From NCBI GenBank assembly GCA_043803765.1, contig JAZDJQ010000012.1:66238-130237 (forward strand): a stretch of 64,000 nt of DNA, in the 5' to 3' direction. Both the position numbers and the translations under genes were made by a program. The notes beneath the pieces are model-generated. The model was not told where the DNA came from. It worked only from the letters and a program-made list of their open reading frames with translations, and made no database searches. The DNA comes from Candidatus Iainarchaeum sp. (GTDB lineage Archaea; Iainarchaeota; Iainarchaeia; Iainarchaeales; VGJJ01). Below, piece after piece: positions 20,043 through 55,504 of the stretch (positions are counted from its first letter, which is position 1; the number at the start of each line of letters is the position of its first letter).

Positions 20043-20131
20043 CCCACACAACCTGTTATACCTACCAAAGCCCGTTTTCCCCCTTTTTATATGTTGGGGG
20101 AAAAACGCCTAATAGTGTCCTTTTACTCATT

Positions 20132-29563: not shown

Positions 29564-30097
29564 CTAGACTAATTCCTGCGCATGAAGCCGCGTGATGATT
29601 TGATGCCGGTGTACCCATCCCGCGTATATCAGGGCAAACCCTGCAATGAGCAGGACGCGGAATAACACATCGTGCGTGAGCATGGCAAATGAAAGGGGAG
29701 TGTGTTCCAATTGGAGAATGGTAACCATCATGCGTGCTAAATTAAATCCATAGAGCAGGATGATTCCAATGATGATTCCTTTGATGCGCGCATACAACGA
29801 ATGTTTCTTCGTTGCCAGGATGGCGGTTCCAAGCAAAATGAATTCAATTAATCCCGTACATCGTGGGGAAATCTCAATATTTTTTCCATTCATCCAAAAT
29901 GAAATGGGATTGTTTCCATCGGTTGTTTGAATTCCTACTCGATTCAATAGTTCGCGCACATGTTCTGCTTCAATGATTTGCAAACGATATTCGTGTGGTG
30001 AAAAAAAAAGGAAGAAAATAGTAAATAATACTCCCCACCCTACAAGGAAAGTAATCAGTGTTTTTCTCCATTCGGTTGGGGAATGCAGGTTAACCAT
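29564..30097 (-). CDS. 177-aa polytopic membrane protein, candidate minimal exosortase/archaeosortase-family transpeptidase.
   Basis: About 5 TM helices. Cys80 sits in ISPRCTGL (compare the CSG active-site context). Arg122 is in GFNLAR and Arg164 follows, so the Cys-to-Arg spacing is +42/+84, similar to the ArtA catalytic triad spacing (+41/+80). Family assignment is from memory of motifs, not a search. Confidence 0.4.
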   Translation of the reverse strand: MVNLHSPTEWRKTLITFLVGWGVLFTIFFLFFSPHEYRLQIIEAEHVRELLNRVGIQTTDGNNPISFWMNGKNIEISPRCTGLIEFILLGTAILATKKHSLYARIKGIIIGIILLYGFNLARMMVTILQLEHTPLSFAMLTHDVLFRVLLIAGFALIYAGWVHRHQIITRLHAQELV

Positions 30098-30128: not shown

Positions 30129-31142
30129 GTGCGTACGATGCCGGCTAAATCCATTATGAGAAAAAATGTGAATCATGCTTTTTCGTTTTGGGATGTTTTT
30201 TGGGAGGGATTCGCACACGCAATCAGCCCCTCATTGTTGAGTGCACAGGCATTGGTGTTGATTATTCTCATTTTTGCTCTTCTTACATGGACGGGATTCA
30301 TGGGACTAGGAGGGTTGCTTCTCAGTATTATGGCACTTTCATTTAGTTCTCTTCCATTAGTCCTATTCGTCGTGTTATTTGGTTTAGTATTATGGATTCT
30401 TGGGATTATGGCAATCAATGCATTCGTGCAAGGAATAGAGTATCATCTTGCGATGCAATCCGTTACACGTAAACCGATTGATTTGAATTTGGCATGGAAA
30501 CTCGCATCAGCTAGATGGAAAGATGCCTTTATTGTACAGGGTTGCTTTTCAGCTATTATTATTACAGCATTCATCATCTCGTCTGCCGCGATATTCTTTT
30601 TTTCTCCTGAAAAAAATATTTTATTAGTACCTCCCCTGCAATGGATAAAAGCTCTTGCGATTGCATTCGCGGTATTGACTGGAGTGCTCGTGGCATTGCA
30701 GCCATTCCTTTTGCTTTTGCTTCCAACCGTATATTTTGAGAATGTTTCTCCCGCGCAGGTTTTTGCACGCATTCATTCGTATGTTAGAAGACGATATGTT
30801 CGATTGCTCGCAGTAGCAGTAGGAATTATTGCCATTAACATGATAATTGGTTCTATTGCGGATATGGCATACACGATTCCTATTGAAAGAACGCTGCCAT
30901 TTTCTATTATTGTGTTTGCCGTTGTTGCTACCATTATTCAGTTGCTGGTCATCCTGTTCACATTCACTCTCACCGTGTGTATTCAAACCCTATTGTATTT
31001 GCACGTGGGAAAGCCCAAAACCGCAACGCAGTTTGTTTCCACGGGGATTGTAGGAACCGCTCTTTCCAGGATGACTCCTGAAAATCCTCATTATTCGGGA
31101 AGACTTCCTGTCAAGTGGAAAAGCCCGCGGAAGCGAAAATAA
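30129..31142 (+). CDS. Polytopic membrane protein (337 aa), function unknown.
   Basis: Long ORF with more than 8 hydrophobic segments and a basic C-terminal tail. No motif recognised. Confidence 0.55.
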   Translation: MRTMPAKSIMRKNVNHAFSFWDVFWEGFAHAISPSLLSAQALVLIILIFALLTWTGFMGLGGLLLSIMALSFSSLPLVLFVVLFGLVLWILGIMAINAFVQGIEYHLAMQSVTRKPIDLNLAWKLASARWKDAFIVQGCFSAIIITAFIISSAAIFFFSPEKNILLVPPLQWIKALAIAFAVLTGVLVALQPFLLLLLPTVYFENVSPAQVFARIHSYVRRRYVRLLAVAVGIIAINMIIGSIADMAYTIPIERTLPFSIIVFAVVATIIQLLVILFTFTLTVCIQTLLYLHVGKPKTATQFVSTGIVGTALSRMTPENPHYSGRLPVKWKSPRKRK

Positions 31143-34135: not shown

Positions 34136-37100
34136 ATGGATTGTCGAGCAATCCCTTTATACACGCGCGACTGGAGTGAGACAACGATGAAGATTGGAGG
34201 TTTTGAAGTCGGCCCCTATGCGGTGCGGGAGGAAGGGGGAAAGAAGCACCTCATCTATGCGTGTAAAGACTGTGTTTTTGGTGCGAGTCTAGCCGATGAT
34301 GCGCATTGTCGTTTTCACGTGTTGAATATTTTGCAAAAATCCGATGCGGATTTGATTGTGCTTGCGGATGTATATGAGCGCGTATACAATGAGGAGCAAA
34401 CAAAGAATTGGAAAGAGATTGCGGATTTGATTAATGAGTTCAAGGGAAAAGAATACTGGAGTTATTCTCATTTAGGCGACCCGGAGAAAGAAAACGAGGC
34501 AGAGTTTGGTGCGCGACACGATGAGATGATGCAGATAACGTATGAAGTTCTTTCATACGATCCAATCAAGGCATACCTTCGTTGTCTTTCTGCACTCAAA
34601 AGGGAAGCGGGAAAAGCAAAGAGTGGTGGAAACGCATCTCCAGTATATGGTAAAACTCTTCAATCGGTGAGAGAATCATTTGAGAAAACAAAATTTATTC
34701 AGCAGACAAAAGAATATTTGTTGAGATTGGATTCCATTCCCGATTCAAATGAATTGTATCGTCATTTCTTTGAAGCCGAAGTAAAGCCGTCCTTTATTGG
34801 TTCACGCTTAATGTTTGGAAATGAAGTGGAGAATTTTGAATTATTGGACGAGTATTCTGTTGGAAAGTCTACGGTTCAAATATTCAATCATCCAAACAAA
34901 GTGGCTAAATTATATTTTGTGAATCCGCCTGAATATTCTCTCTCTCCTGAAAAATATTTTCTCCTTAGTAAGACGAAAGAAGTAGTATCGGGATACAACC
35001 CCGGACGTTCCGGATTATCGGACATTGCTTCCTCTCGAAACTATTTTACTCGTGTCTATCAAGCCACCATTCGTGATTTGGCTCATCGGAATAACATCAA
35101 AATAGAAAACGAGGAAATTGAAGAGTTAGCGGAAGTCGTGTCCCGCTATACGGTAGGATACGGCATACTGGAATTGTTGCTGTCCGACCGAAAAATAACC
35201 GACATCTTTTTGGATTCCCCCATAGGGGGAAAACCCGTGTACTTGGTGCACGCCGAATACGGACAGTGCATGACGAATATTTTGTACACGGAGAATGAAG
35301 CGGAAGCATTTGTTTCTAAACTTCGCGCCATGAGCGGCAGGCCGTTCGATGAAGCCCACCCGGTATTAGACTTTGATTTGCCGGGGCAGGAAACCCGTGT
35401 GGCGAGCATTGGAAAACCGCTTTCCCCGGATGGTTTAGCATTTGCTTTTCGCCTGCACAAAACAACCCCCTGGACGCTTGAACAATACATTGACAATAAG
35501 TTTCTCACCCCTCTTGCTGCGGGAATGCTTTCTTTTTTTGTTGATTCTAAAGCAACGATGCTCGTAACCGGTTCCCGCGGGAGTGGAAAAACAAGCTTGT
35601 TGAGTGCATTGATGCTTGAAATATTGCAGAACTCGCGATTGATTGTGCAGGAGGATAGCGTTACAGGGGATTCTGAAATATTGGTTGAAAACAACAACCA
35701 AATGGAATACACCACGGTAGGAAAACTCGTTGACAAACAAATGGAGGAATTCGGAAGCCTGCCCATACACAATAGAGAATTATTAGACTGCAACCCGAAT
35801 AATATACACGTCTTTGCATTGGATAAAAATGGGAGAATCCAACTTCAGCGTGTGTCCCAATTCAGCCGGCACAAAGTGACAAAAGAGATTATTGAAGTCA
35901 CTACACGCAGTGGGAGAAAAATAAAAGTGACGTGCGATCACTCATTATTCAGTCTGAATGAGAGTGGAAGAATTGTTCCGGTCAAGACATCAGCATTAAC
36001 ACTAGGGAGTTATGTGGCAGTTCCTAAACTGTTTTCATCCGAAAACAGTCCTATCCCCGCATTTTCAGGATTGGAAGCGCTCGCATTGGAAGAAAAAGCG
36101 CTTCTCAAGGGGGAGACCTTACGGCTTTTTGTCAGCCAGAATTGGATAGAAGTAAAAAAATGGGCAAATGAAAAAGGATATCAAAAGAGCACCCCAAGCG
36201 CGTGGAAACGGGCGGGAATACTTCCAGCAAAGCTCTTTATACTATTGAATGGACCATCCCAAATTCCCATTAAAAACATTCAATTCAAACTAGACAGGAA
36301 ATCAAAGGAAATTCCACTTGTATGGGAAGCAAACGAAGATTTGGTGACTCTCGCGGGATTGTGGCTTGCGGATGGATGTTATGACACACGGTATGGAATG
36401 ATTGTTTCCGTTGGCGATGAGCCGAGCAAACAATTGCTTGAACGTTTCGCTGAACGATTGGGATTAACCACTCGGGAACATAGCGACGGGTTTTCCACTA
36501 TTATCTCAAACACGAATCTCGTGTGGTTCTGGAAAAATGTGATGAAATTGAATGGAAACGCGTACACTAAAGAATTCCCTCAGTGGATTTTTAATGCATC
36601 GAAATCCCAACAGGGCCGTTTTTTGAGAGGATTATTCAGCGGAGACGGGTGTGTAACCCAAAATGAAATAAATATTTCGTTAGCCTCGGAGAAGATGACC
36701 AAACAGATTCAAACGCTCCTGACCCATTTTGGAATTATTTCCCGTAAAAGAAAAATAGATGAAAAAGACAAAACATATCAAACCTATATTGGGGAATGGA
36801 ATCATTTCAATTCCTTCCAGAAAAATATCGGGTTTTTACCCCAACACAAAGTAGAACGGCTGAACAATCTGTGCTCCAAAAAAAGAGCCACGCATGACAC
36901 GCTTGATATCGTACCAATATCCAAAGAAAATATCAAAAATATTGCGGCCGTGTCTGAACCGTTTAATTCGCATGATTATATTGGAAAAGGAAATAGAATG
37001 GGAAGACGTAAGCTTCAATCATTGCTTTCCACAGTGAAAACGCAAACGGTTCTTATTGATGGTCTCAAACAAACAATGAACTCGGATGTATTTTTCGATG

Positions 37101-38038
37101 AAGTGGTGGAATTGCAAAAAATAGAACATGAAGAAACATATGTGTATGATTTTTCAGTCCCGGATGCGGAAAACTTTGTTTGTGAAAACATTATTGCACA
37201 CAACACACTGGAGTTACCAGTCCCCTACCTGAAAGAAATAGGGTTTAATGTTCAGCGATTGAAAACAAGATCTCCTATTGGAGTGAGCAAGAGTGATACC
37301 GAAGTGGCTCCGGAAGAAGCATTGCGTACCGCATTACGTTTAGGTGATTCTGCTCTCATACTGGGAGAGGTTCGTTCCGAGGAAGCACGGGTGTTATACG
37401 AGGCCATGCGGGTAGGGGCTGCAGGAAACACCGTATTAGGAACAATTCACGCCGACTCGGCCTATAGTGTGTGGGACAGAGTGGTGAATGATTTGAAAGT
37501 TCCTACGACTAGTTTTAAGGCAACCGATTTGGTCGTGGTTGCACGTCCCATTCGTTTTTCAGGAAGTTTAAAGTCGCATCGCCGAATGACCCAAATAACC
37601 GAAGTAAAAAAACACTGGAATAAGGACCCTGACCGTGAAGGCGGATTATTGGATTTGATGCTGTATGATGCCCGTACGGACGCATTAGAATTAATGGAGG
37701 ATAATCTAAAAGAAAGCGAATTGTTTGAACGCATACGCCGATTGTCAGGGTTAACACTTAATCAAATATGGGATGATATCCGAACTCAAGCGAATGCTAA
37801 ACTATTCATGGTTGAATTGAAAAACCAATACAAGATTCCTGAAATACTTGAAGGGGAATACACTTCCTCTGCTCGCGCCAAACTTGCATTAATCAAAGAC
37901 CAGCAAATACAAGAACACGGTTCTCCTGATTTTGCAGAATTATTAGTAGAGTGGAAAGAATGGGTGAAAAAGAACACACTACAATCCGTCCTAACGAAGA
38001 AACAACAGCGCGAAGAAGAAAAAAAAGAAAACGAATAA
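34136..38038 (+). CDS. Type II/IV secretion-system ATPase (FlaI/VirB11/PilB-like, archaeal pilus assembly ATPase) with an in-frame intein. Spliced product is about 784 aa.
   Basis: Walker A LVTGSRGSGKTS. Asp box RLIVQED|intein|TLEL, which is IVQEDTLEL when spliced. Walker B DSALILGEVRSEEA. His box VLGTIHADSA. The N-terminal extension contains a CKDC…HCRFH Cys/His cluster. Confidence 0.85.
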   Translation: MDCRAIPLYTRDWSETTMKIGGFEVGPYAVREEGGKKHLIYACKDCVFGASLADDAHCRFHVLNILQKSDADLIVLADVYERVYNEEQTKNWKEIADLINEFKGKEYWSYSHLGDPEKENEAEFGARHDEMMQITYEVLSYDPIKAYLRCLSALKREAGKAKSGGNASPVYGKTLQSVRESFEKTKFIQQTKEYLLRLDSIPDSNELYRHFFEAEVKPSFIGSRLMFGNEVENFELLDEYSVGKSTVQIFNHPNKVAKLYFVNPPEYSLSPEKYFLLSKTKEVVSGYNPGRSGLSDIASSRNYFTRVYQATIRDLAHRNNIKIENEEIEELAEVVSRYTVGYGILELLLSDRKITDIFLDSPIGGKPVYLVHAEYGQCMTNILYTENEAEAFVSKLRAMSGRPFDEAHPVLDFDLPGQETRVASIGKPLSPDGLAFAFRLHKTTPWTLEQYIDNKFLTPLAAGMLSFFVDSKATMLVTGSRGSGKTSLLSALMLEILQNSRLIVQEDSVTGDSEILVENNNQMEYTTVGKLVDKQMEEFGSLPIHNRELLDCNPNNIHVFALDKNGRIQLQRVSQFSRHKVTKEIIEVTTRSGRKIKVTCDHSLFSLNESGRIVPVKTSALTLGSYVAVPKLFSSENSPIPAFSGLEALALEEKALLKGETLRLFVSQNWIEVKKWANEKGYQKSTPSAWKRAGILPAKLFILLNGPSQIPIKNIQFKLDRKSKEIPLVWEANEDLVTLAGLWLADGCYDTRYGMIVSVGDEPSKQLLERFAERLGLTTREHSDGFSTIISNTNLVWFWKNVMKLNGNAYTKEFPQWIFNASKSQQGRFLRGLFSGDGCVTQNEINISLASEKMTKQIQTLLTHFGIISRKRKIDEKDKTYQTYIGEWNHFNSFQKNIGFLPQHKVERLNNLCSKKRATHDTLDIVPISKENIKNIAAVSEPFNSHDYIGKGNRMGRRKLQSLLSTVKTQTVLIDGLKQTMNSDVFFDEVVELQKIEHEETYVYDFSVPDAENFVCENIIAHNTLELPVPYLKEIGFNVQRLKTRSPIGVSKSDTEVAPEEALRTALRLGDSALILGEVRSEEARVLYEAMRVGAAGNTVLGTIHADSAYSVWDRVVNDLKVPTTSFKATDLVVVARPIRFSGSLKSHRRMTQITEVKKHWNKDPDREGGLLDLMLYDARTDALELMEDNLKESELFERIRRLSGLTLNQIWDDIRTQANAKLFMVELKNQYKIPEILEGEYTSSARAKLALIKDQQIQEHGSPDFAELLVEWKEWVKKNTLQSVLTKKQQREEEKKENE
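35657..37204 (+). mobile_element. Intein (516 aa) with a LAGLIDADG homing endonuclease, inserted in the Asp box of the secretion ATPase.
   Basis: Block A SVTGDSEILV (Ser1). Block B VTCDHSLFS. LAGLIDADG motifs LAGLWLADG and FLRGLFSGDG. Block F VYDFSVPDAENFV. Block G IIAHN followed by Thr+1. Confidence 0.85.
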
Positions 38039-38101
38039 TCCACCTACTACCCTGCGAAAAAAAGAAAAAAATGAGAGGAATAATTGTTTCCTCCCATGCG
38101 A

Positions 38102-39901
38102 TTACGTTAACCAATCAAACAATGTGTCCCAGAAAGAATCGGTCGAATCTTTACCTGTTCCATCTTCGCTCCCATTACTGGTTGTCCCGTTGGGCATGCA
38201 ATACAAGAGAATAGAGTCCCACTGGGTTCCATCGGTACACCCATAATCGTCTGAAGTATCATCTTGACCCGGTTCGTCCGGCATAAGTATGTAACACAGT
38301 TTATTGAGTTCGTCCCAGCCGAATCCGTCGGGGCACACGTGATAGTACTCACCGTTATCGGTTCCGCATAGCAACAAATCGCCAAAAGAGAAGGGATACT
38401 GGCAGGTCGGGACGGGAAAATTATAATTTAAGCACGTCGGATAAAGGGGATCGAATACCGAGATGGGCCAATTGCATTTATTGTAAGGAGTCAACATGCA
38501 CAGCTTGTCGGTTTCATCCCAGTCATAAAATTGGGAGCAGGGGTCACTTCCATCCGCACAAAACCAACTATACCCGCCATCCGGGGAAACGGGGTCGGGA
38601 CAGGAAGGCCACTTCCCTTCTTTTAAGAGACAAACCAAAAACGGTTCTGCTTCAGCTGGATCATGAGGAAGAGGACAAGGACCACTTGGCGTGCTCGTAT
38701 CATCTCCGTCGTCGTCATCCGTGCACTCAGGACACTTACAGGCTACTGCACTAATATCGTATTCGCAGATAGGCGGATCATTACAAGCCCCCGGACCCGT
38801 GGTAACAGGACAATATTTTCTGTTGCAATATTCTTCAAGAAGCATTACGAGATCATTTTCGCTTAGCTGACTAATGTCGAGTCCTTTTATTCCAGCCATC
38901 AACGCGACAGCCGCACTCGTGTCAACGCTCCCTGCACATTCTCCTCCCTCTGATGCCCCGCCTCCGCCGCCGGGTGCCACTGGACTATTTGGACCGGGCG
39001 TTGTTGAACCCGGGGGAGATCCACCGCCCCCAGTGGTCGTCGGACCCGACCCAGAAGGAGCCGTGGGGGAACCAGGGCCGGGAGTAGAACATCCTTCGGC
39101 ATCATATTTACACTCGCAACCGTACTTATCCTCTCCATGTTCACCCACAGCTATGTAGCCCGTACATTTTCCTTCCATCATGCATCCAAGAGGGCCTGTT
39201 TTGTCGGGGCATTCACGTTGGTTGCATCGTGCGTTGTTCACCATGTCGTAGTCTTCCGGAGTACTGTGTTCGTCAATAAGTTGGTCATACATTTTCGCAA
39301 GCTGTTCTTGGGTCAAACCCGGTGCATCCTTGCAAATGTTACTTCCCCCTGTAGTCGGACCACTGGGTTTCGATTCCGGCCCAGATGGTGCTTGGGGAGT
39401 TGTGGCTCCTCCGGTGGTTGGTCCATATGGATCCCTACACTCACAAGAGTATTCATCTTCCGACTCATAAGTAGACATGGTGCACACTTCCCCCGGTGGG
39501 CACCTTCCGCCACAATTGGTCGAACTTCCGCAGGTGTAAAAAGCTTCTATAACCTCGTTAACAATACCGGCTGCTACTCTTTTTGGAAAGCACAAAATAT
39601 TCTCAGCTGCATCGGCAGTAACAGAGATAAATCCCCCTATGTTCTCTGAAAGAACCCCACAAGCGAGTCCAGCGGAGCCAGCCGCTCCAATGATAACCCC
39701 CAACTCACTCGCAGCAGAGAAGGGAAGAGCAACAAGCGCGATGGATCCTTCCCCAAAGGTATCCACTGATTCAATAGCATTATCTTTGAACGAACTCATC
39801 CATCCTGCCGAGACGAGGGAGGCGTGTTGTCCTATCTGGAATCCTACAACCGACACCAAAAGAAGGGAGAGAATCAATACTTGAAAGAGAGGTGATTTCA
39901 T
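38102..39901 (-). CDS. Secreted Cys-rich protein (599 aa) with Pro/Gly/Thr-rich linkers.
   Basis: N-terminal signal peptide MKSPLFQVLILSLLLVSVVG. More than 50 Cys in CxC/CxxC clusters. PTTGG/PGS low-complexity linkers. An acidic DDDDGDD stretch. Confidence 0.7.
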   Translation of the reverse strand: MKSPLFQVLILSLLLVSVVGFQIGQHASLVSAGWMSSFKDNAIESVDTFGEGSIALVALPFSAASELGVIIGAAGSAGLACGVLSENIGGFISVTADAAENILCFPKRVAAGIVNEVIEAFYTCGSSTNCGGRCPPGEVCTMSTYESEDEYSCECRDPYGPTTGGATTPQAPSGPESKPSGPTTGGSNICKDAPGLTQEQLAKMYDQLIDEHSTPEDYDMVNNARCNQRECPDKTGPLGCMMEGKCTGYIAVGEHGEDKYGCECKYDAEGCSTPGPGSPTAPSGSGPTTTGGGGSPPGSTTPGPNSPVAPGGGGGASEGGECAGSVDTSAAVALMAGIKGLDISQLSENDLVMLLEEYCNRKYCPVTTGPGACNDPPICEYDISAVACKCPECTDDDDGDDTSTPSGPCPLPHDPAEAEPFLVCLLKEGKWPSCPDPVSPDGGYSWFCADGSDPCSQFYDWDETDKLCMLTPYNKCNWPISVFDPLYPTCLNYNFPVPTCQYPFSFGDLLLCGTDNGEYYHVCPDGFGWDELNKLCYILMPDEPGQDDTSDDYGCTDGTQWDSILLYCMPNGTTSNGSEDGTGKDSTDSFWDTLFDWLT

Positions 39902-39905
39902 GCTT

Positions 39906-40310
39906 TCATCCTCCGGGGAGGCTCTCCTTGATTTCAGTAATTATGGCTTGGGGCAGTTTTTCTGCAAAAATTTCTTGCATCTCTAAGCACTTGATAGACT
40001 CATTATGATACCCGCAAGTCATGGCAACCAATTCCCCTTTCTTCGCTGCTTCTTCAACTATCTCAGTGGCTTGTTCAATAGTGTAGATATTAGTAGTTTT
40101 CGAGTACGGTATCGCTTCCGTAATACTCATACCTTCAACCTTAAACAATACGGCCGCTTGCACATTACTGTTCTCCGCGCCCCCTCCGAGGAATCGGCTG
40201 GCGAATCCTTGGGGGGTATCTATCAAGCCTCCTAACATGATGCTGGCGATGAAAACAATGAAGAAAATGAGTGCTACTACAATCGTTCGCGAACGGTCAG
40301 CCTTCGGCAT
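39906..40310 (-). CDS. Small N-terminally anchored protein (134 aa), unknown.
   Basis: ORF 4 nt upstream of the Cys-rich gene, so likely an operon. Single N-terminal TM. Confidence 0.45.
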   Translation of the reverse strand: MPKADRSRTIVVALIFFIVFIASIMLGGLIDTPQGFASRFLGGGAENSNVQAAVLFKVEGMSITEAIPYSKTTNIYTIEQATEIVEEAAKKGELVAMTCGYHNESIKCLEMQEIFAEKLPQAIITEIKESLPGG

Positions 40311-40358
40311 GGAGAGCTAGGGATGTTTTGGCGTATAAAAACGTATGGGTTATGCAGA

Positions 40359-40455
40359 CTTTGCCCATAAAGTGAATTTAAAAAAAATTAAACGTGATAG
40401 CGCCCCAACACCCTTTTTTTGGTTCTTTTTTCCAATGCGTTGCAGGCAAAACCCA
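40359..40455 (+). repeat. Copy A of a ~90-bp repeated promoter/leader-like element (CTTTGCCCATAAAGTGAATTT-A8-TTAAACGTG…ACACCCTTTTTTTGGTTCTTTTTTCCAATGCGTTGCAGGCAAA).
   Basis: Near-identical to copy B at 44762..44850 and related to copy C at 43459..43560. Contains a TATA-like TTTAAAAAAAA. Confidence 0.7.
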
Positions 40456-40566
40456 TTATGCAGGTATCTTTAGTCTAAAAGTAATGGCTTGCGGATACGT
40501 GTAAGGGAGCAGGTTTGTCGTTGCCGAGGCCTTCTTTATAAAAACGACAAGTGTTCTTCACAAGGA

Positions 40567-42903
40567 ATGCCTCCTCAACGATTCGCTCAAAAGAAGGAAA
40601 GCGGGAACCGGCTCACTCCCCGTAATGAGAATGCATCTCCTTCTATTGGAAGCCTTTACAAGGATATTCCGGTTTCGAGTGATGCTTTTTTTGCTAAAGA
40701 GGATTTGGCTATTCCTAAAGAGCATGGATTCATTCGTTTCTGTCGGGACATGTACAAGCGTTTTCCGGGGATGGGAAAAGGAGCAGTATTCACGGAAGAG
40801 TATCAGGAAGCGGTTACGTTTTTAGGTTGGAGTTTGCGTCCGGAAGAATTTTCATCCGCAGTAAAAGGAAGCATGGTGTCAATACTACTAATTGGTGGAT
40901 TTCTTTCTGTTTTATTAGGAATTGTTTTTGGAGAAACCATTGGCGCCCTGTTGGGAGTAAGCGGACTTGTTTCCATTGTGTATCTTTTTTTTCCTGTTAT
41001 TGTTATTGCCGTGGTGGTTTCCAATTACATTCAAAAATTTCCCATTGCCGAAGCGCGTAGAGAAAAAATTCGTGCGCTTACATACGTTCCGGACATGATT
41101 GGATACATGATTATGTCCATGAAGCTTGTTCCTAATTTGGAAAAAGCAGTGGAGTTTTCCGCACAGCATGGAAAAGGAAGAATAGCGGAAGAATTTAGAC
41201 GGATCATTTGGAATACGCAATTAGGAGTATATACTACGGTAGCAGAGGGTTTGGATGATTTAGCCTATAAGTGGGGAAAGTTTTCATCCGAGTTCAAGCA
41301 GGCATTGATGAATATTCGCGCGTCGGTGTTGGAAAACACGGAAGCAAAGCGTTACCAATTGCTTGACAAAACAATGGATGATGTGTTGGAAAGTGTGCAA
41401 AATAAAATGGAACAATACGCGAGGGATTTATCTCAACCTTCTACCACATTGTTTTATGTGGGGGTGTTGCTTCCGCTAATACTTATTATTATTCTCCCGG
41501 TTGGAAGCGCGTTCTCGGGTTCTCCTCTTGCCCAGACATGGGTGTTGTTCCTCGTATACGATATTTTTCTTCCCATTTTAGTTATTTGGTTTGGGAATAA
41601 CTTGTTGCAATCCCGTCCTCCCACGTATACTCCTCCTGAGATACCGGATGGTTTTCCCGGGCTTCTTCCAAAAGATACGGTGCGCGTGGGAAAAGGAACA
41701 ATGAATGTATGGGTGGTAGTGGTAGGAATCATGATAGTAGGGGGTTTAACGTCCGGCTACCTGCACTTATTTGGTTTGGGGGTGGGAGAAGTGGATGCTC
41801 CCGGTTCATTGTATGTGCTTGCTCCTGACCATACTCTTCAACGGGTATTAGATGTGGATAGGAAACCGTTAGATTGGTTTGAGGAGAATGGAACACGGGA
41901 GTCTCAGCTCGTAGCACAAGGACTTTCGGTAGAGGAAGCGCGTGTTATTGTAGGAACGGAGAAAACGCGTTTTTTTGCTCAATCGGAAAATGATGTAACG
42001 CCCTATAATCTCATTTTTGGTATTCTGATAACGGTAAGCATGGCGATTGCCGCCTATGTTGGATTAACTCTCGCTGAGAAAAGAAAGATACAGCAGAAAT
42101 ACATGCAGATGGAATCCGAATTCAAGGATAGTTTGTATGTGTTAGCGTCTCGTTTAGGAGAAAACAAGCCGATTGAGGATGCATTGCGTCACGCGCAAAC
42201 GTTTTTGCCTAACAACATTGTTTCGCAGGAAGTGTTTGGTAAGACAGTAGATAATATTCATGTATTGGGAATGCCATTGGAGAGCGCGGTATTTGATCCG
42301 GCGTATGGTAGTTTGCGCAATAATCCTTCGCAAATGATTACGAGTTCAATGAAGATTGCCATTGACTCGGTTAGATTAGGGGTGGGAGTAGCCGCACGCA
42401 CGCTTATTTCTCTTTCACGGCAAATTGGAAATGCGGAAAGAGTAAGTAAAATGCTTACGATTCTCATCAAGGATATTACGGGAACAATGAAGACGGTATC
42501 GGTGTATATCGCCCCAATCGTATTGGGGATAACGACTAGTTTGCAGCGTGTAGTAATTGTTACATTAGTGAGTGTGAGTGCATCCAGTGAAGGAAGCCAA
42601 ACCATTGACCCTAATTTAGGGGCGAATATCCCTGGAGTCGAAAGCTTTGGAAGCACGGATATTGGTTCATTCATTAAAGCAGACGTGATTGCTACTCTTG
42701 CAACGCCGGGAGAATTCTTGTTGATTGTGGCGATTTATGTGATTGAGCTCGTGATTATTATGAATTATTTTGTCACCCTCATTGAGGAAAACAATAAACT
42801 TACCGCGAAACAGAATGCGGCAACCCAGCTCCCCATTGCGATTATATTGTTTGTTATTACGGTGATTGTGTCCAATTCATTAGTAGCAGGAAACTTTGGG
42901 TGA
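40567..42903 (+). CDS. Polytopic membrane protein, putative pilus platform protein of the FlaJ/TadC/PilC (T2SS-F) type.
   Basis: Two cytoplasmic domains carry the T2SSF-like signature: VPDMIGYMIMSMKLVPNLEKAV and FKDSLYVLASRLGENKPIEDAL. Each is followed by a TM bundle. Sits next to the secretion ATPase and pilin genes. Start is uncertain; the ORF track begins at a TTG at 40489. Confidence 0.5.
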   Translation: MPPQRFAQKKESGNRLTPRNENASPSIGSLYKDIPVSSDAFFAKEDLAIPKEHGFIRFCRDMYKRFPGMGKGAVFTEEYQEAVTFLGWSLRPEEFSSAVKGSMVSILLIGGFLSVLLGIVFGETIGALLGVSGLVSIVYLFFPVIVIAVVVSNYIQKFPIAEARREKIRALTYVPDMIGYMIMSMKLVPNLEKAVEFSAQHGKGRIAEEFRRIIWNTQLGVYTTVAEGLDDLAYKWGKFSSEFKQALMNIRASVLENTEAKRYQLLDKTMDDVLESVQNKMEQYARDLSQPSTTLFYVGVLLPLILIIILPVGSAFSGSPLAQTWVLFLVYDIFLPILVIWFGNNLLQSRPPTYTPPEIPDGFPGLLPKDTVRVGKGTMNVWVVVVGIMIVGGLTSGYLHLFGLGVGEVDAPGSLYVLAPDHTLQRVLDVDRKPLDWFEENGTRESQLVAQGLSVEEARVIVGTEKTRFFAQSENDVTPYNLIFGILITVSMAIAAYVGLTLAEKRKIQQKYMQMESEFKDSLYVLASRLGENKPIEDALRHAQTFLPNNIVSQEVFGKTVDNIHVLGMPLESAVFDPAYGSLRNNPSQMITSSMKIAIDSVRLGVGVAARTLISLSRQIGNAERVSKMLTILIKDITGTMKTVSVYIAPIVLGITTSLQRVVIVTLVSVSASSEGSQTIDPNLGANIPGVESFGSTDIGSFIKADVIATLATPGEFLLIVAIYVIELVIIMNYFVTLIEENNKLTAKQNAATQLPIAIILFVITVIVSNSLVAGNFG

Positions 42904-42960
42904 ATGGAAAGAAAAAGAGGAGAATGCGCTGTGCGAAAATTTTATCCAATTAGAAAAAAA

Positions 42961-43434
42961 ATGAATAACAAAGGACAGGCGTTTGAGGCCTACCGTGTTC
43001 TCATTGCGATGGTTATTTCTCTTGCCATCCTTACCATTATTCTTTCCGCGGTAACGTATTTTGACACGTTGCGTGAAAAAGTAAGCATTGATACATTGTA
43101 TTCCTCGTGGAAGAGTGCGGTTGATTCTCCTAATGGAAAAGTCGTGTTGGCTAAGGACTTGTATTTTACCTCTCAAACCACTTTTGGCAAACGCCAGTTT
43201 GCATTACAAGCGGGGTTGGATGAGGCCTGCATTGGTTTTGATGCGGAAAAGGCGGCCGGATTCATTTTGAATGATGCTAATCCCGATAAGCCGGTTGTGA
43301 CGTTAACGCGCGGAGTAGTAGGAAACGTGTACATGGAGTGCCAGACTGAAAACTTCCTCCTTGAGCCGGCTCCCCCTGATTGTTATGCGTACTGCCTGAT
43401 TTCTTTTGGAAAGCTCATTGCCGGACCTATCTAA
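42961..43434 (+). CDS. Archaeal type IV pilin-like protein with a class III signal peptide.
   Basis: MNNKGQAFEAYRVLIAMVISLAILTIILSAV has the KGQ prepilin-peptidase site followed by a hydrophobic helix. Confidence 0.7.
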   Translation: MNNKGQAFEAYRVLIAMVISLAILTIILSAVTYFDTLREKVSIDTLYSSWKSAVDSPNGKVVLAKDLYFTSQTTFGKRQFALQAGLDEACIGFDAEKAAGFILNDANPDKPVVTLTRGVVGNVYMECQTENFLLEPAPPDCYAYCLISFGKLIAGPI

Positions 43435-43458
43435 TCAAGGGATGCTGGCATAAACAGG

Positions 43459-43560
43459 CTTTGCCCATATGTGAATAAAAAAAATTAATGGGATATTTGG
43501 GCATCCCGCCATTGTTTTAGTTATTTTGTCCATACTTTACAGGCAAGCCGGGCAAACGTG
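43459..43560 (+). repeat. Copy C, a diverged copy of the promoter/leader-like element, upstream of pilin gene 43611.
   Basis: CTTTGCCCATATGTGAATAAAAAAAATTAA … TTTTAGTTATTTTGTCCATACTTTACAGGCAAGCCGG aligns with copies A and B with indels. Confidence 0.5.
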
Positions 43561-43610
43561 AACCTTTTTATAGACCCAGACTCTCGTTAAACGCTATAGG
43601 TGATGCATGC

Positions 43611-44132
43611 ATGAATACTCGAGGACAGGCCTTTTCCACATTCCAGTTGCTTATTGCCGCAGTAGTAGCGTTGGCAATACTAGTATTATTGTTGAATATT
43701 ATTGGTAGTCTCCCTAATTTGGGTGGGCAGAAACCCAACAAGGTAGCATCGGATTTGGTTGCAAGTCAAGTGAATGCTCCTTCTGAATTGCGTACGAGCA
43801 ACTCGGTTACGTTTACTCGGGAGGATTCCCTCAATGCTCAGGCGATTGCATCCGCTTCTCAAGTAGTAACACAGGGACAATTATGCTTGTCGTTGGGTGA
43901 TTTTCCTGAAGATGGGGATTTTACTACGAATGATAGCGGGAATATTATCAAGTATGCCGGCTCGTCCAATTTGCGCGTGCGGTTATCCGTTATTTGCGAC
44001 ACGGGAACCGAATTAATAGATGATTTGACTGATAATGGAATTGTGGATGATTGGACATCCAGTAATTCGGCATGCGGTGATGTCACCAGTTTGAGTCAAA
44101 CCGCGTGTATTGTTGCACTCCGCTTTGCGTAG
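43611..44132 (+). CDS. Archaeal type IV pilin-like protein with a class III signal peptide.
   Basis: MNTRGQAFSTFQLLIAAVVALAILVLLLNIIG is paralogous in its N-terminus to 42961..43434. Confidence 0.7.
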   Translation: MNTRGQAFSTFQLLIAAVVALAILVLLLNIIGSLPNLGGQKPNKVASDLVASQVNAPSELRTSNSVTFTREDSLNAQAIASASQVVTQGQLCLSLGDFPEDGDFTTNDSGNIIKYAGSSNLRVRLSVICDTGTELIDDLTDNGIVDDWTSSNSACGDVTSLSQTACIVALRFA

Positions 44133-44146
44133 GATTGAGAGAGGGT

Positions 44147-44314
44147 ATGATTTCCATCTGGAATGAAACAAGAGCGCAAGGGGAATTCAATTCCCTGTAT
44201 ATGATTCTAGTCCTAATTATTGCCGCATTGTTGCTCATTACGGTCGTGAAGCCCATGTTTCGCCAGTCACAGCAATTAGGAAGCAAGGTTCCTGTGGTAG
44301 GCGCAAGCAGTTAG
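44147..44314 (+). CDS. Possible small pilin-like protein (55 aa).
   Basis: MISIWNETRAQGEFNSLYMILVLIIAALLLITVV is a class-III-like N-terminus. Lies directly downstream of the pilin genes. Short and speculative. Confidence 0.3.
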   Translation: MISIWNETRAQGEFNSLYMILVLIIAALLLITVVKPMFRQSQQLGSKVPVVGASS

Positions 44315-44353: not shown

Positions 44354-44374
44354 GGGACATTTTATTCCTGTCCC
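44354..44374. terminator. Hairpin (GGGACA-N9-TGTCCC) followed by a T-rich tract. Terminator-like, downstream of the pilin cluster.
   Basis: Perfect 6-bp inverted repeat, then TTTCCTTAT. Confidence 0.35.
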
Positions 44375-44410
44375 TTTCCTTATACTATTATTCGATGTGT
44401 AACATCACAT

Positions 44411-44668
44411 TTAGTAGTACGTGTTGCAGCATGTCTTGTTTGACCACACCTTTCCATACCAGATGAGGGCAATTCCCACAACATACCATAATGCGACCCA
44501 CCAGTCGAATGTTCTACCAGTCACATTGAATTGGGTTACAAATCCTCCAATCAGGAACCAGAGACCTAATGCTTTTAACACAACGGAAATAATAGCAGAT
44601 GTCCAATCGATCCCCATTCCTCCCATCATGTCCATTTCCATTAATTTGCTTGTTTTTGCTCGCGCCAT
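44411..44668 (-). CDS. Small membrane protein (85 aa), hypothetical.
   Basis: ORF with two hydrophobic helices. Confidence 0.35.
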   Translation of the reverse strand: MARAKTSKLMEMDMMGGMGIDWTSAIISVVLKALGLWFLIGGFVTQFNVTGRTFDWWVALWYVVGIALIWYGKVWSNKTCCNTYY

Positions 44669-44761
44669 ACTTGAGTATTCCTCCTTTTCACCAATTGGCG
44701 GTTTATGGAGTGAGGCAACCGTTTCGGGTTTATTAAGGAAACGGATTTTCCAGATTTTCCA

Positions 44762-44850
44762 ATAAAGTGAATTTAAAAAAAATAAACGTGGAATTGGGCT
44801 AACACCCTTTTTTTGGTTCTTTTTTCCAATGCATTGCAGGCAAAGCCGGT
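44762..44850 (+). repeat. Copy B of the ~90-bp promoter/leader-like element. Orphan: no plus-strand gene lies downstream.
   Basis: Matches copy A except a 1-nt indel, a 10-bp variable core and a G/A change. Lies between two minus-strand genes. Confidence 0.7.
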
Positions 44851-44874
44851 TTTTTCTCTGGAGAAAAAAAGTAT

Positions 44875-45330
44875 TTATTTTTCTTGGAATGCCCCAAGAT
44901 AGTGCAATGTAAAAAATAATAGTAAAATGCTCCCCGCGTTCAACCAGATCGTATATTCATATAGAAAAGTGAGTGCGCTCACGGGGAGGAATAATGCTCC
45001 TAATGAAGCACAGGCAGGACACTGTGCTACAAGGAATATGCTTAATGCGCCAATACCTCCAATACTGCGACCCTTTGTTTTTTTAGCTGGAGTGCACACG
45101 GCAGGGGAACGCCATAAATAGGTTTGATAGGCAAAAGTAATCCCGAATAGTGCGAGAAAAATAACCAGTAGGATTGCATTAATGAGTGGAGTGTTCGCCA
45201 CCCACACGTGAATATTGTTTAGGTTTCCCAATACTTGCGTGTACAAATATAGTAAAAAAAAGAATATTGCGGAGAAAAATGCAATAATAGGATAGGAACG
45301 ATTTTCTTTGAAAACGAGAAGGAGGCGCAT
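44875..45330 (-). CDS. Membrane protein (151 aa) with a CPAC motif, possibly a thiol-disulfide oxidoreductase-like membrane protein.
   Basis: Four hydrophobic segments. CPAC faces a loop. Confidence 0.45.
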   Translation of the reverse strand: MRLLLVFKENRSYPIIAFFSAIFFFLLYLYTQVLGNLNNIHVWVANTPLINAILLVIFLALFGITFAYQTYLWRSPAVCTPAKKTKGRSIGGIGALSIFLVAQCPACASLGALFLPVSALTFLYEYTIWLNAGSILLLFFTLHYLGAFQEK

Positions 45331-49776: not shown

Positions 49777-52700
49777 TTAGAATCCAATCAATCGGAGGAA
49801 GAATTGGAATAATAGGATGAGTGGATTCAGTGCCGCAATGAAAAAAAGTGAAGTCGATTCAGGAATAGGTAGGTAACATGATTGACTGCATACGCCTCCG
49901 CAATCAATTCCAAGTTCTCCCCTATCATATTGTCCATTCTCGCATGGAGACAAACTTTGAACAATACACCCTTCGTCTATTTCCAAATCGCAGTCATCAT
50001 CTATTCCATTGCATAACTCAATAGATGGAACGCACGATAGAGAAGGATTGTCTCCACCCCCTCCGCTGTTGCCGCTTCCACTATCTCCATCTCCGCCACC
50101 GTTTCCGCCATCTCCTTCTCCTGAATCAGAGTAATCGAAATCATCCTCATCGTCATCATCCTCATTTCCGCTATCGGGTGAAGTGACTTCGAAATTCAAT
50201 AAAACGAAGTTGTCGGTGATGTCGGTTTCGACTATGTTTGAATTTCCACCAGAAAAATCATAGATAATGGGGAAAAGAGACCCGATAAAGCGGTAGGTTC
50301 CCTTGCTTAGATTGAGTGCAGTCGGTTCTACCGTGATGGCGAGTGATGTGGTTCCTTCTGGAATGTCTATTCCCTTTTCCACGGAGGTAACGGGAAGCAA
50401 TGGTTGTGGATAAATGGAATTGTAGTTGTATGTCCGGGCGTTAAAGAAACTTCCAAGAACGAACGGGTCGGGAGACAAGTAGAAAACTTCTGCCATTTTC
50501 CAGAAATCATCCAGTTCCTGGCAGTGGAACGCCCGTTGAGGATCCGGATGGTCGATTCGGCAGAATACCCCAAATATCATACTGCGTGAGTGCGTGTACC
50601 CTTCTCCTGCACTGTGTAGTTTTTGGATAATAAGTTGGAGAGTGGCTTTTTGTCCTAGGGATACGCTGTCAAAGGCCGTGTTTGTTGTGAGGCTTCCTAC
50701 ATTAGGTTCTATGTTCGTGGATCCTCCTATAGTGATGCTGGCAACATTGGAATAGGGGGATAATCCAATGACGGATCGGGCGGCGATGCGGTAATAATAG
50801 GTTCCTTGTTGCACCGTGCCATCTGCATACGTAATCGTTCCGGGTGGCAACCCGTTTTTGATAATGCTCCAATTGAAGTTGTCCGTGCTCCGCTCTACAA
50901 TGTATTCGATTTCATCATCCGCATTGTCATTCCAAATTAGTGTCACGATTCCTCCTTGGATGGTAGCAGTCAAATTGGATGGGGCATTAGGTAAGGGGTC
51001 GTTTATCTGCAAAAACAATGATCCTGATTTCATTCCATTGGGGTGAATCACATACACTTCATGCTGTCCGTTTCCTAGGGAATTTATTTGATTTAGGGAA
51101 AGAGTATACGTGAGTTGTCCGGATGTAACCCATAATGGAGTAATATCTCCCAGACTTCCTATGTGAACTTTGGCGCTCATCTTGAAATTGGTTCCAGTAA
51201 ATGCGAGCAAGGAAGCAGTGTCGGATTCGATATTGTTGGGGGTTATCGCATTCAATGTGGGGGAAATATCTGCAAATAATACTGGAAGGGAATTGCTGTA
51301 TTCTGTTCCTTGTTTTATTCTCACGTTGTGCGTTCCGAGTCCCAGTTGTTGCTGGAACGATGCGGATAATCCTGCCTTGACTTGGGTGGAGTTGACAAAG
51401 GAGCTGAGCGCGAGAACTTTTCCATCGATATCCACTTGATCGGTTGCCGTAAAATTGGACCCATTCAACGTGAGCGTGGTGCCAATCTCATAGGCAATCG
51501 TTGTAGGAGAAAGGGAAGTGAGTGCTAATGTTTGGTCGACTCCCTGCACTGGAACAGCGTTTGAATTCTGTCCACTTTGCGTAACCTGAACAAAGTGGGT
51601 TCCTATTCCAAGCGAGTTGGTTTGGGAAATTGATAGGTTTACCGTGAGAGTAGTTGAATCCACAAAAACGGGAGTCAGAGTCAAACTTCCAATTTTTACT
51701 GTAGCACTGGGTGTGAATCCTACTCCTTTGAGAGTAAGAGAAGCTGTTTTTCCTACTCCAAATTCAGATGGAATGACTTGTCCAAGATAAAAAGTAGCGC
51801 TTGAGGAATATTGGCATCCTTGATAGAAGCTAGTGAAAGCAGGAACACACGTGTAAGGGGGAATAGGATTGATAGCGGTTCCATAGGATTGTAATGGAAC
51901 CACATCGCATGTTTCCCCTGAGTCCAAAACGGAATTTCCGCAATAGGGTTTTCCCGAACAGGAAGCGGAATCAATCACCCAAGAAGATGTAGCCCAGTGA
52001 TAAGTACCGCATCCGATATCTTGGCAATCGGTTAAGAGATTGCAATTGTCATCCGTTCCATTATTGCATGACTCTGCCACGTTGGGATTGATGTTGGGAT
52101 TCCCATCATGGCAATCCCCTGCACAAGTAGTAACGCCATCTCCATCTGCATCCGTACAGGATGGAGTATAATTGGTTGAAAAATAACCATTAAGAAAACC
52201 CTGATTGGCGGCATTGGGAACCCCCATGAAATAAGTGATTCCGCACACTTCATCATCATTCAGCGATTGGATTTGAATTCCTTTTTCGCTCGTCCGGGTG
52301 CGTTGATTGTGAATAGCTTGAAAGCTTTCGGCAAAATCTTGGAAATATTGGTCATACTCTGGAATGAAAGACGGGTCTGTTTTGCGGATGGATTCCGCTA
52401 ACGCCAATGTGGGGCATAGCCCTATTTGCTCCTGCGAGTCGGAGCCTTTCTCTCCATCAAAAAGGGTGTATTTTTCTCCTTGCGTGGAAGTAGCCGCCTT
52501 GTAAACGAACATGTAATAATCGGAGTCGAATCCCTTCCCTTCATTCAACGGATAATCATTGTAGAGAATTCCATTCCGCACAGCAGTAGGATTCTTGTAG
52601 AGATAATGATACACAAAATAGAGTCCATCCTGCACATACTGCCGAATAGTGGCATATTGGGCATCCGTAGTACGGAACACGTCTTCCCCTGCCGCGGCAA

Positions 52701-54988: not shown

Positions 54989-55504
54989 ATGCAGAAAAAA
55001 AATGGGCAGGGAAGTATCGAATACTTACTCTTGATTGGAGGCGTAATATTAGTAGGAGTCATTATCCTCGTGATGGTGTTCGACGTTGCAGGGAAGGGAA
55101 AAGACATTTTACAATACAACTTGTACGCCAGCACTAAAATCACCGACACAACATTTGATAATACTTTTATTCCTCTCACGGATTTGTTTTTTGACGCGAT
55201 GGGTGCCCCGGCATCCGTGATTTTCACATATTCCGCTCCGGGGGCGAATGAGTTTTTACTTGTAGTGGAAAAAGGAGAACATGGAAAAATTGATGTATAT
55301 GATACTTCCATCGCGTTCACAGAAAATGCAGATGAACTCATCATGTATTCGCTCCCATTTTTTGAAACAAGCGCCACGTTGGGAGGATTAGAAGACTGCA
55401 CTCAATATTATTTCCGTCTACGCGCTTGCAGCAGCAGTGGCATTTGCAAAGTATCCGAAGTGGTATCGGCGACCCCTGCGTCAATAGGATATCCCTGCTC
55501 ATGA
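54989..55504 (+). CDS. Pilin-like protein with a class III signal peptide.
   Basis: MQKKNGQGSIEYLLLIGGVILVGVIILV has a basic n-region, G at -1, and Glu shortly after the cleavage site. Confidence 0.55.
   Translation: MQKKNGQGSIEYLLLIGGVILVGVIILVMVFDVAGKGKDILQYNLYASTKITDTTFDNTFIPLTDLFFDAMGAPASVIFTYSAPGANEFLLVVEKGEHGKIDVYDTSIAFTENADELIMYSLPFFETSATLGGLEDCTQYYFRLRACSSSGICKVSEVVSATPASIGYPCS

Follow-up and report, generated by a model that had tools for sequence, protein, structure and literature searches.

What kind of machine is encoded by the ATPase, the polytopic membrane protein and the small pilin-like genes that lie together at positions 34,136 to 44,314 of a 64,000-nucleotide (nt) stretch of DNA from a DPANN archaeon? 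This stretch, hereafter the window, belongs to a metagenome-assembled genome (MAG) of a Candidatus Diapherotrites archaeon (Diapherotrites/Iainarchaeota), and an earlier note made from the letters alone had read the genes in question as a compact archaeal type-IV-pilus-like module comprising an ATPase, a platform and class III pilins. That reading is upheld by the assignment of the first gene to the T2SSE superfamily, by the family to which the platform belongs and by the conserved pilin sites, and we conclude that the locus very probably codes for the assembly machine and the subunits of a non-archaellar type IV pilus. All the genes named in the earlier note are present on the strands it gave them, with several of their starts corrected here. 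The public record offers functional names in this region only for the ATPase and for an open reading frame (ORF) at 54989; the platform and the three pilin-like genes are called “hypothetical”, the hypothetical entries of the region apart from the platform being V1776_02995, V1776_03000, V1776_03015 and V1776_03020.

A scan of GTDB species genomes found a relative of the platform encoded in 268 of them, from which 80 loci were taken; five further loci came from metagenome assemblies, bringing the related loci to 85. The ORFs of all loci were classified by BLASTP, and component counts are given below per 86 loci; they are lower bounds, as contig ends cut some of the loci and a query of 55 amino acids (aa) is hard for BLASTP. 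The closest relative of the window's locus is L005, the platforms of the two being 81% identical.

The ATPase ORF spans 34136-38038 (1300 aa), and its likely start is at 34187, which is M18 of the long ORF, because both the blastn register against L005 and the deposited 1283-aa protein (MFH0970401.1, “ATPase, T2SS/T4P/T4SS family”) begin there. The gene (34187..38038, plus strand) thus codes for a 1283-aa precursor of an assembly ATPase of the T2SSE/PilB-FlaI superfamily, with a spliced extein of 767 aa. The extein scores 66.1 bits against Pfam T2SSE (cutoff 24.9), in line with the earlier assignment of this gene to a pilus-type machine, and in comparisons with PDB sequences it recovers the A. 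fulgidus GspE (2oap; 1.9e-29, 106 bits), CpaF (1e-24, 90 bits) and FlaI (1e-18, 70 bits). Once the intein described below is removed, all four boxes of a T2SSE-type ATPase, namely the Walker A, the Asp box, the Walker B and the His box, align with 2oap, the Asp box of the extein (IVQEDTLEL) pairing with VVSIEDTREI of the A. fulgidus GspE. The top NCBIfam matches are FlaI (143 bits, 1.3e-41; cutoff 550) and TadA (135 bits); since the FlaI cutoff is missed, the protein is a member of the superfamily and no FlaI equivalog. Hence, the label “FlaI-like” used in the earlier note is apt as far as the superfamily goes but not beyond it, the protein being much nearer to a haloarchaeal pilus-type ATPase than to FlaI, namely that of the Haloterrigena turkmenica plasmid pHTUR04, with which it shares 40% identity over 379 aa (241 bits). 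The conserved ATPase core is preceded by an N-terminal extension of about 300 aa, which carries a C-x2-C...H-C-x2-H motif present in 43 of 58 intein-less relatives.

The intein, which went unmentioned in the earlier note and is added by the present analysis, is a 516-aa element with a LAGLIDADG homing endonuclease (35657..37204, plus strand) lodged within the Asp box (IVQED/S...AHN/TLELP, the slash marking the splice junctions here and the cleavage sites further below). In Pfam searches with the 1300-aa ORF it is matched by Intein_splicing (89 bits) and LAGLIDADG_3 (62.8 bits). Its junctions read ...RLIVQED/SVTGDSEIL... and ...ENIIAHN/TLELPVPY..., and it displays the features of a class 1 intein: Ser1, a TCDH (TxxH block), AHN/T and two LAGLIDADG motifs. 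The insertion is exact, in that the blastn alignment with the intein-less L005 ortholog stops at 35655 and resumes at 37203. As the intein interrupts the Asp box, ATPase activity requires splicing. The same site (VQED/S...HN/TLE) is occupied in 11 other relatives among about 72 full-length ATPases, with the same-site inteins of these relatives being 42-53% identical, and such a sporadic distribution is typical of homing inteins. The intein-bearing loci are L076, L066, L062, L079, L082, L031, L063, L046, L043, L040, L064 and L018; in L018 it is another intein (24% identity) at a different position, and the 1815-aa length of the ATPase gene in L062 suggests a second insertion. KlbA-type inteins likewise interrupt an archaeal VirB11/T2SSE-family ATPase and are mini-inteins with Ala1. 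Unlike these, the intein of the window has 516 aa, a LAGLIDADG endonuclease, Ser1 and a Thr at +1 in the Asp box.

The platform is encoded downstream as a single gene for a polytopic protein of the T2SSF/PilC-TadC-FlaJ family with about 9-10 hydrophobic helices (40567..42903, plus strand, 778 aa). Its ORF runs from 40489 to 42903 and is 100% identical to the deposited V1776_03005 on a 173,193-nt MAG contig; we place the likely start at 40567 because the resulting 778 aa agree in size with the deposited protein as well as with over 100 homologs. The earlier note was right in describing one polytopic gene here, the 804 aa it gave being shortened to 778 by the corrected start. More than 383 homologs of uniform size were recovered, and a single gene of 755-812 aa fills this role at all loci. 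The family as a whole belongs with the T2SSF platforms: 32 of 35 sampled members match PF00482 at E<=0.01 (best 2.7e-6), and one member of the family was named TadB by JGI. The structure model of the platform fits the solved domains of PilC, EpsF and TcpE, and in each half of the model a long helix is followed by 4-5 short helices and then by two long hydrophobic helices. Further, a BLASTP comparison with the haloarchaeal platform is colinear across both halves (N-terminal half, E 1e-23; C-terminal half, residues 490-659, E 8e-11). Compared with this haloarchaeal relative the platform of the window has about 170 additional aa, of which about 100, partly beta-structured, are located between the halves. 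It is this family-level and structural evidence on which we assign the gene as a platform in spite of the sub-threshold score of the single sequence considered below.

Directly downstream of the platform are three plus-strand genes whose products combine a short basic leader, a Gly or Ala at -1 and a hydrophobic helix, as is characteristic of class III subunits, which keep such a helix of about 20 residues in their mature form. In pilin A (42961..43434, 157 aa) a globular domain containing four Cys comes after the predicted class III signal, MNNKG/QAFEAYRVLIAMVISLAILTIIL. In pilin B (43611..44132, 173 aa) the signal is predicted as MNTRG/QAFSTFQLLIAAVVALAILVLLL, and behind it is an alpha/beta head in which two Cys (C129 and C166) are invariant. 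The N-termini of the two read MNNKG/QAFEAYRVLIAMV and MNTRG/QAFSTFQLLIAAV, respectively. The third, a mini-pilin of 55 aa (44147..44314, deposited as V1776_03020), has the predicted signal MISIWNETRA/QGEFNSLYMILVL (QGEF...), and its mature form of about 45 aa would be essentially one hydrophobic helix with a short tail and no globular head. The earlier note had spoken of K/RGQAF signals, which is accurate as to type for pilins A and B, being of the KGQ and RGQ kinds; the third reads RAQGEF.

A home-made scan for the class III motif, defined as [KR][GA]Q no more than 30 residues from the start and, after it, 16 residues of strong hydrophobicity, covered the 1927 start-stop combinations of >=45 aa on both strands of the window, and only pilin A, pilin B and the mini-pilin matched. 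The motif being restricted to these three genes, their cluster is no chance pattern. The site is also retained in evolution: a [GA]-Q pair, mostly after K or R and ahead of a hydrophobic helix, is found in 70 of 79 pilin A homologs (as the variant x-[KRS]-G-Q), in 68 of 70 pilin B homologs (61 of them [KR]GQ) and in 45 of 52 homologs of the mini-pilin. Thus, the class III pilins that the earlier note saw adjoining the platform are supported by a motif that is unique to these genes in the window and conserved across the 85 related loci, and the 55-aa candidate at 44147, which it had offered tentatively, is backed by the conservation of its site.

The pilin B family alignment has an almost invariant N-terminus, and a profile search with it recovered 769 cluster representatives at E<=1e-3, all of about 170-200 aa. 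The AF2 model of pilin B (pLDDT 91) has an N-terminal helix over residues 7-33 (27 residues) and a globular domain; no likeness of the globular head to solved type IV pilin or archaeal pilin folds was found. The mini-pilin is the most conserved of the three, with homologs of mature size 38-48 aa (median 43) and the consensus E-x-R-A/Q-[GS]-E-[WF]-x-S-x-Y-MLIVLIIAALLLI-x-V-[VI]-KPMF-x-QSQ. The 157-aa form of pilin A starting at 42961 is absent from the deposited record, and therefore the public annotation has a longer N-terminus in which the signal motif is buried. Direct reading of the DNA shows a TATA-like TTTTATA upstream of pilin B at a distance of about 40 nt, a Shine-Dalgarno-like GAGGG 4 nt before the ATG of the mini-pilin, and a hairpin with a T-run downstream of the mini-pilin stop (~44354-44382), all of which fit an operon ending after the mini-pilin.

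The linkage of these genes is conserved. Across the 86 loci the ATPase is found in 80, pilin A in 80, pilin B in 72 and the mini-pilin in 52; pilin A homologs sit directly after the platform (80 of 86 loci), and the mini-pilin is last in the operon wherever BLASTP found it (52 of 86). The prevailing gene order is ATPase, platform, pilin A, pilin B and mini-pilin, preceded by a gene for a 337-aa membrane protein and, on the minus strand, by an archaeosortase-like gene. At some loci pilin B is duplicated, with tandem copies in certain relatives (e.g., L001 13055-14143). In the distant relatives L003 (13921-16491) and L004 (14392-17120), whose platforms are about 50% identical to that of the window, four extra genes follow the mini-pilin, and two of these have class-III-like N-termini (RGQES/RGQAA); the pilin set of the window's lineage is therefore a reduced one.

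How does this system relate to those already described? The general parts list of archaeal loci for type IV filaments (TFF) (PMC4858521; preprint 10.64898/2026.04.22.720090) is the parts list found here. The pilins resemble those of the Epd pilus of Methanococcus maripaludis (System 1/Makarova clade 1), which functions in adhesion. The five characterized EppA substrates of that organism read RAQI, KGQV, KGQV, KGQL and KGQI (PMC4371748, Table 1), so that the -2/-1/+1 triplets KGQ, RGQ and RAQ of the window are the same as those of EpdA-E; EppA requires Gln at +1 (PMC4371748, PMC4390842), and FlaK rejects it (PMC4371748). The major pilins of both the Epd and Tad systems are head-less (preprint 10.64898/2026.04.22.720090), as is the mini-pilin here, which thus combines a +1 Gln with the head-less form, and in the Epd locus too several larger minor pilins are encoded nearby. 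However, the Epd system has two platform genes (EpdJ/K), about 11 genes in all and a dedicated EppA in or near the locus, whereas the locus here consists of five core genes, with a single platform gene of 778 aa, and a crude scan of +/-10 kb gave no candidate for a peptidase; moreover, the pilins of the window lack the QxSxE(+5) pattern as well as a PF04021 match, and the top annotated match of the ATPase is haloarchaeal.

The haloarchaeal resemblance is centered on the pHTUR04 locus (HTUR_RS24145/24140), with its ATPase core being 40% identical over 379 aa as given above and followed right away by a single-gene platform that is colinear with ours in both halves. It differs in that the platform of the window is about 170 aa longer and the pilin set is another one, the plasmid locus being devoid of annotated pilins. 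On the plasmid (L086, NC_013747.1 10541-23800) the ATPase-platform pair lies among genes for ParA, a DEAD/DEAH helicase, an AAA ATPase and a DUF87 (HerA/VirB4-like) protein, and its platform likewise fails Pfam T2SSF. By resemblance, the PilB/PilC-type core that the window shares with haloarchaea possibly falls in Makarova subclade 4F, which we regard as a lead; the Cys/His motif ahead of the ATPase core and the giant surface-protein neighbors are among the points of likeness. The bacterial Tad/Flp system shares a head-less pilin of about 45 aa in mature form together with two pseudopilin-sized proteins of about 150-190 aa, and the ATPase matches CpaF (1e-24) and the TadA model (135 bits). Unlike in the Tad system, the Flp motif G/xxxxEY is absent, with the mini-pilin having instead [RK][AG]/Q[GS]E[WF]xSxY, one platform gene of fused length takes the place of TadB plus TadC, and neither a secretin nor TadZ, RcpC or TadV accompanies it; the context, too, is archaeal. 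The system looks like a hybrid, to judge by these sequence likenesses, of a haloarchaeal-like ATPase/platform core with Epd/EppA-type pilins that include a Flp-like mini-pilin.

We infer the following course for subunit cleavage, for the choice of the major pilin and for fibre formation and function. The ATPase precursor would excise its intein and rejoin the Asp box (IVQED-TLELP), yielding a 767-aa PilB-like ATPase that would act as a hexamer docked on the cytoplasmic helical bundles of the single-gene platform with its approximately 10 helices. The three prepilins would enter the membrane and be cut between the [GA] at -1 and the Gln at +1 by a peptidase encoded elsewhere; given the invariant +1 Gln, an EppA-like peptidase is predicted elsewhere in the genome. 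Driven by ATP, movements of the platform would then draw the mature subunits from the membrane, with their hydrophobic N-terminal helices as the handle, and add them to a helical fibre. We propose the head-less mini-pilin of about 45 aa as the major subunit of this fibre, because the major pilins of the Epd and Tad pili are head-less and because it is the most conserved of the three, with the globular pilins A and B (about 150-170 aa) probably serving as minor, priming or tip subunits. Such a pilus would likely allow the archaeon to adhere to surfaces or a host cell.

The flanks of the operon hold several further genes. An archaeosortase/exosortase-family small membrane protein is encoded upstream of the ATPase on the opposite strand (29564..30097, minus strand) in 51 of 86 loci. 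In the window it matches TIGR04178 exo_archaeo (39.8 bits, cutoff 23) and Pfam Exosortase_EpsH (27.4 bits), with the subtype models ArtA, ArtB, ArtD, XrtX and pacearchaeosortase all far under their cutoffs. This gene heads an operon of giant surface proteins (about 2500 aa; 21896-29500, minus strand, and beyond), which are anchored at their N-termini and feature the Ig-like CarboxypepD_reg, Big_1, SdrD_B and SpaA domains; 35 loci have a conserved N-terminus of the giant protein. Neither the adjacent giants nor the pilins have a recognizable C-terminal sorting signal, and hence the archaeosortase is no more than a speculative candidate for processing either. At least three further giant minus-strand genes occupy the first 20 kb of the window (1-4043, running past the window start, 4610-11953 and 12518-20068), and the readable ones share the conserved motif FY..ED.YY..LDFLD..G.P.YK in an N-terminal cytoplasmic part, with a membrane anchor behind it. 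Among the giant genes lies one for a 571-aa protein (20132-21847, minus strand) with the pilin-like N-terminus MTTPKLNERA/FTLFTALLSFILILLAG, whose single homolog in the fetched loci (L055 21453-22304) starts ...SDKG/FNLFTALVSFLLIAL; from its sequence it is possibly another class III signal-peptide protein, one with Phe at +1 instead of Gln.

Between the archaeosortase and the ATPase, and in close relatives only, is the gene for the 337-aa polytopic membrane protein (30129..31142, plus strand), with homologs in the same position in 18 of 86 loci. We considered it as a cryptic prepilin peptidase and rejected this, there being no Pfam or NCBIfam match, and across its 18 homologs no invariant columns or Asp and no GxGD-type motif. 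On the other side, membrane proteins of 85 and 151 aa are encoded convergently to the end of the pilin operon (44411-45330, minus strand) and recur near the locus in 7 close-relative loci; at about the equivalent place downstream of the pilin operon, L001 and L005 have a gene of the DUF2391 family (PF09622). A search with Rfam over the whole window returned only a tRNA-Asp.

When aligned with L005 by blastn, the window shows three insertions: one of about 3 kb before the ATPase, the intein, and one of about 2.4 kb between the ATPase and the platform, where L005 has 78 nt between the two genes and aligns with the window on both flanks. The last of these (38102..40310, minus strand) is a two-gene insertion that is no part of the conserved module; it codes for a 599-aa protein (38102-39901) that is secreted, Cys-rich and equipped with a signal peptide, and for an N-terminally anchored protein of 134 aa (39906-40310). 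The earlier note had placed both correctly on the minus strand between the ATPase and the platform and had suggested that they could be pilus-associated, as a tip or adhesin component. The latter proposal falls, as both genes are absent from all 85 related loci, and a search among 5.8 billion proteins for homologs of the Cys-rich one returned only itself. Neither protein has a Pfam or NCBIfam match. With 599 codons, a signal peptide and three Cys modules, the Cys-rich ORF is nevertheless a real gene, a strain-specific orphan; the modules are repeats of about C-x4-C-P...C...C-x-C separated by linkers rich in Pro, Gly, Thr and Ser, and its C-terminal region has three C-[PT]-D-G...W-D...L-[CY]-C-like repeats. 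The conserved adhesin-like neighbors of the pilus operon are the upstream giant Ig-domain proteins rather than this gene. The insertion has a GC content of 49.5% compared to about 43% in its flanks and may reflect a chimeric assembly; a recognizable mobile-element origin was dropped, as tblastn gave no phage match and neither target-site duplications nor terminal or flanking repeats were found. The block of about 3 kb absent from L005 (31295-33989), between the 337-aa gene and the ATPase, has on its minus strand a 726-aa gene resembling PEP-synthase/PEP-utilizing enzymes, under the equivalog cutoffs, and on its plus strand an overlapping pair for an AbrB-family antitoxin and a MazF/PemK-like toxin. 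Thus, the Cys-rich/134-aa pair and the block with the PEP-synthase-like and AbrB/MazF genes are strain-specific insertions outside the machine.

The other pilin-like gene, at 54989 (54989..55504, plus strand), is unlinked to the pilus genes. It codes for a class III signal-peptide protein of the classical DUF361/PF04021 type with an fn3-like C-terminal domain and the N-terminus MQKKNG/QGSIEYLLLIGG, and is deposited as “class III signal peptide-containing protein”. Pfam Class_IIIsignal matches it with 30.1 bits (cutoff 23.7), next to weak matches to fn3 and Pur_ac_phosph_N, and with its canonical GQGSIEYLLLIGG it is the only one among the window's candidates to pass PF04021, which bears out the earlier identification of the gene as pilin-like. 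Back-to-back with it is a gene for a 1653-aa secreted protein (49777-54738, minus strand) that features IPT/TIG and MopE-like Cys motifs and has a hydrophobic tail, ...PIPESTSLFFIAALNPLILLFQFFLRLIGF, at its C-terminus. From their sequences, this protein and the 54989 product could represent a substrate of the sortase type and a second system of the pilin-like kind.

Several results weigh against the pilus reading of the operon. For pilins A and B and the mini-pilin, neither Pfam nor NCBIfam gave a match to any pilin or class III model, PF04021 Class_IIIsignal (DUF361) not being hit even at E<=10. The single platform sequence reaches 18.9 bits against Pfam T2SSF (residues 181-311), short of the cutoff of 25.2, which, taken strictly, touches the refuting condition set in the earlier note, a missing match to T2SS-F models; the T2SS-F assignment of the note stands on the family level and by the structure model, and for the lone sequence it does not. 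Of the two T2SS-F domains claimed for it, the first is supported and the second found no backing in Pfam or hhalign: the isolated second domain of eight family members gave no T2SSF match in Pfam at E<=10, and an internal duplication, for which domains 1 and 2 were compared by hhalign, first with 35 sequences and later with 83, received a probability of about 1% and is not demonstrable. This second domain is less secure, then, being unproven by sequence and resting on the colinear haloarchaeal BLASTP match and the helix pattern of the model. A platform-family profile found nothing at E<=1 among PDB sequences, nor did Foldseek return a significant match. As the earlier note had stated, no prepilin peptidase is recognizable in the window: none of its polytopic membrane proteins is of the A24 type by Pfam or NCBIfam, and a crude A24 scan (>=4 transmembrane segments plus G.[GAH]D[..][KRG]) over +/-10 kb of the 85 related loci gave only a false positive in a platform fragment, so that cleavage stands as a prediction. 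Finally, since an opposite-strand insertion splits the ATPase from the platform and an intein interrupts the former, expression and activity are less certain here than in the relatives.

These points need to be set against what other readings of the locus would have to explain. It is unlikely that the operon specifies, instead of a free adhesive pilus, a short T2SS- or bindosome-like pseudopilus acting together with the archaeosortase and the giant Ig proteins to push or anchor these adhesins through the envelope. The archaeosortase gene, in 51 of 86 loci a divergent upstream neighbor of the ATPase, does head the operon of giants with Ig-like/prealbumin-like domains, whose N-terminus recurs in 35 loci; a class-III-like N-terminus is seen in the 571-aa protein within the giant cluster; and S-layer-like or adhesin-like genes are known companions of archaeal TFF loci (PMC4858521; preprint 10.64898/2026.04.22.720090). 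Yet this link is one of position only, with L003 and L004 retaining the pilus operon without an archaeosortase-giant pair directly upstream of the ATPase; the giants are N-terminally anchored and have no recognizable C-terminal sorting signal, the pilins lack substrate-binding domains, and the NCBIfam bindosome ATPase model scores 80 bits against a cutoff of 1000.

Still less probable is that the ATPase and platform belong to a DNA-transfer or other secretion system with unrelated small genes beside it, or are a decaying copy marked by insertion and intein. The setting of the pHTUR04 pair, between ParA, DEAD/DEAH helicase and DUF87 genes and with no annotated pilins, speaks for the former, and the loss of co-transcription of ATPase and platform in the window for the latter; but the three downstream genes, with their conserved peptidase-type site, keep the same order in most of the 85 loci, no VirB4, VirD4 or relaxase-type genes occur in the window, its reading frames are all intact, and the intein retains its splicing residues and has same-site counterparts in the otherwise intact ATPases of 11 relatives. 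An archaellum used for motility, or a system derived from one, is least credible of all and can be regarded as highly improbable. An ATPase and platform of the same superfamilies and subunits with class III signal peptides are common to both, and FlaI is the top NCBIfam match of the extein; however, its 143 bits fall far below the cutoff of 550 and are nearly equaled by the 135 bits of TadA, GspE (106 bits), CpaF (90) and the haloarchaeal ATPase (241) all outscore the solved FlaI (70), no homolog of FlaH, FlaF/G, FlaC/D/E or the archaellins FlaA/B was found in the operon or the related loci, and substrates with +1 Gln are left unprocessed by FlaK (PMC4371748). A non-archaellar type IV pilus remains by far the preferred reading.

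The DPANN archaea are tiny and mostly uncultured, and many are thought to live on hosts; little is known of the structures by which they attach, and most of their pilins count as “dark matter”, with Makarova et al. having noted that DPANN type IV pilus loci hold such unrecognizable pilins (PMC6393860). For Diapherotrites there is a report, worded generally, that they “have type-IV pili” (PMC8561730). As the kind of machine is well known, the advance is an incremental one: what the window encodes is a lineage-specific member of the familiar type IV filament class. The advance lies in three unannotated and widely conserved families, two of globular pilins and one of 43-aa mini-pilins, that are tied to the ATPase and platform by position, motif and conservation; of note too are the conserved neighborhood with an orphan archaeosortase and giant adhesin-like proteins, and the correction of an over-reading, in that the Cys-rich gene between the ATPase and the platform is an orphan and no pilus component. 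These families offer targets for annotation models and for proteomics and cryo-electron tomography (cryo-ET) of Iainarchaeota, with an EppA-type peptidase predicted in these genomes. We tentatively raise the further possibility, which we hold to be rather doubtful as yet, that the locus represents an undescribed, Iainarchaeota-wide filament subtype, with a haloarchaeal or 4F-like core of ATPase and single-gene platform, EppA-type (+1 Gln) pilins, a head-less fibre pilin of about 43 aa as an archaeal counterpart of the bacterial Flp, and a functional coupling to the conserved orphan archaeosortase and the giant Ig-domain adhesins, that would serve in attachment to surfaces or hosts. If true, this subtype would supply the “cognate pilins” that earlier surveys missed for the DPANN members of this ATPase clade.

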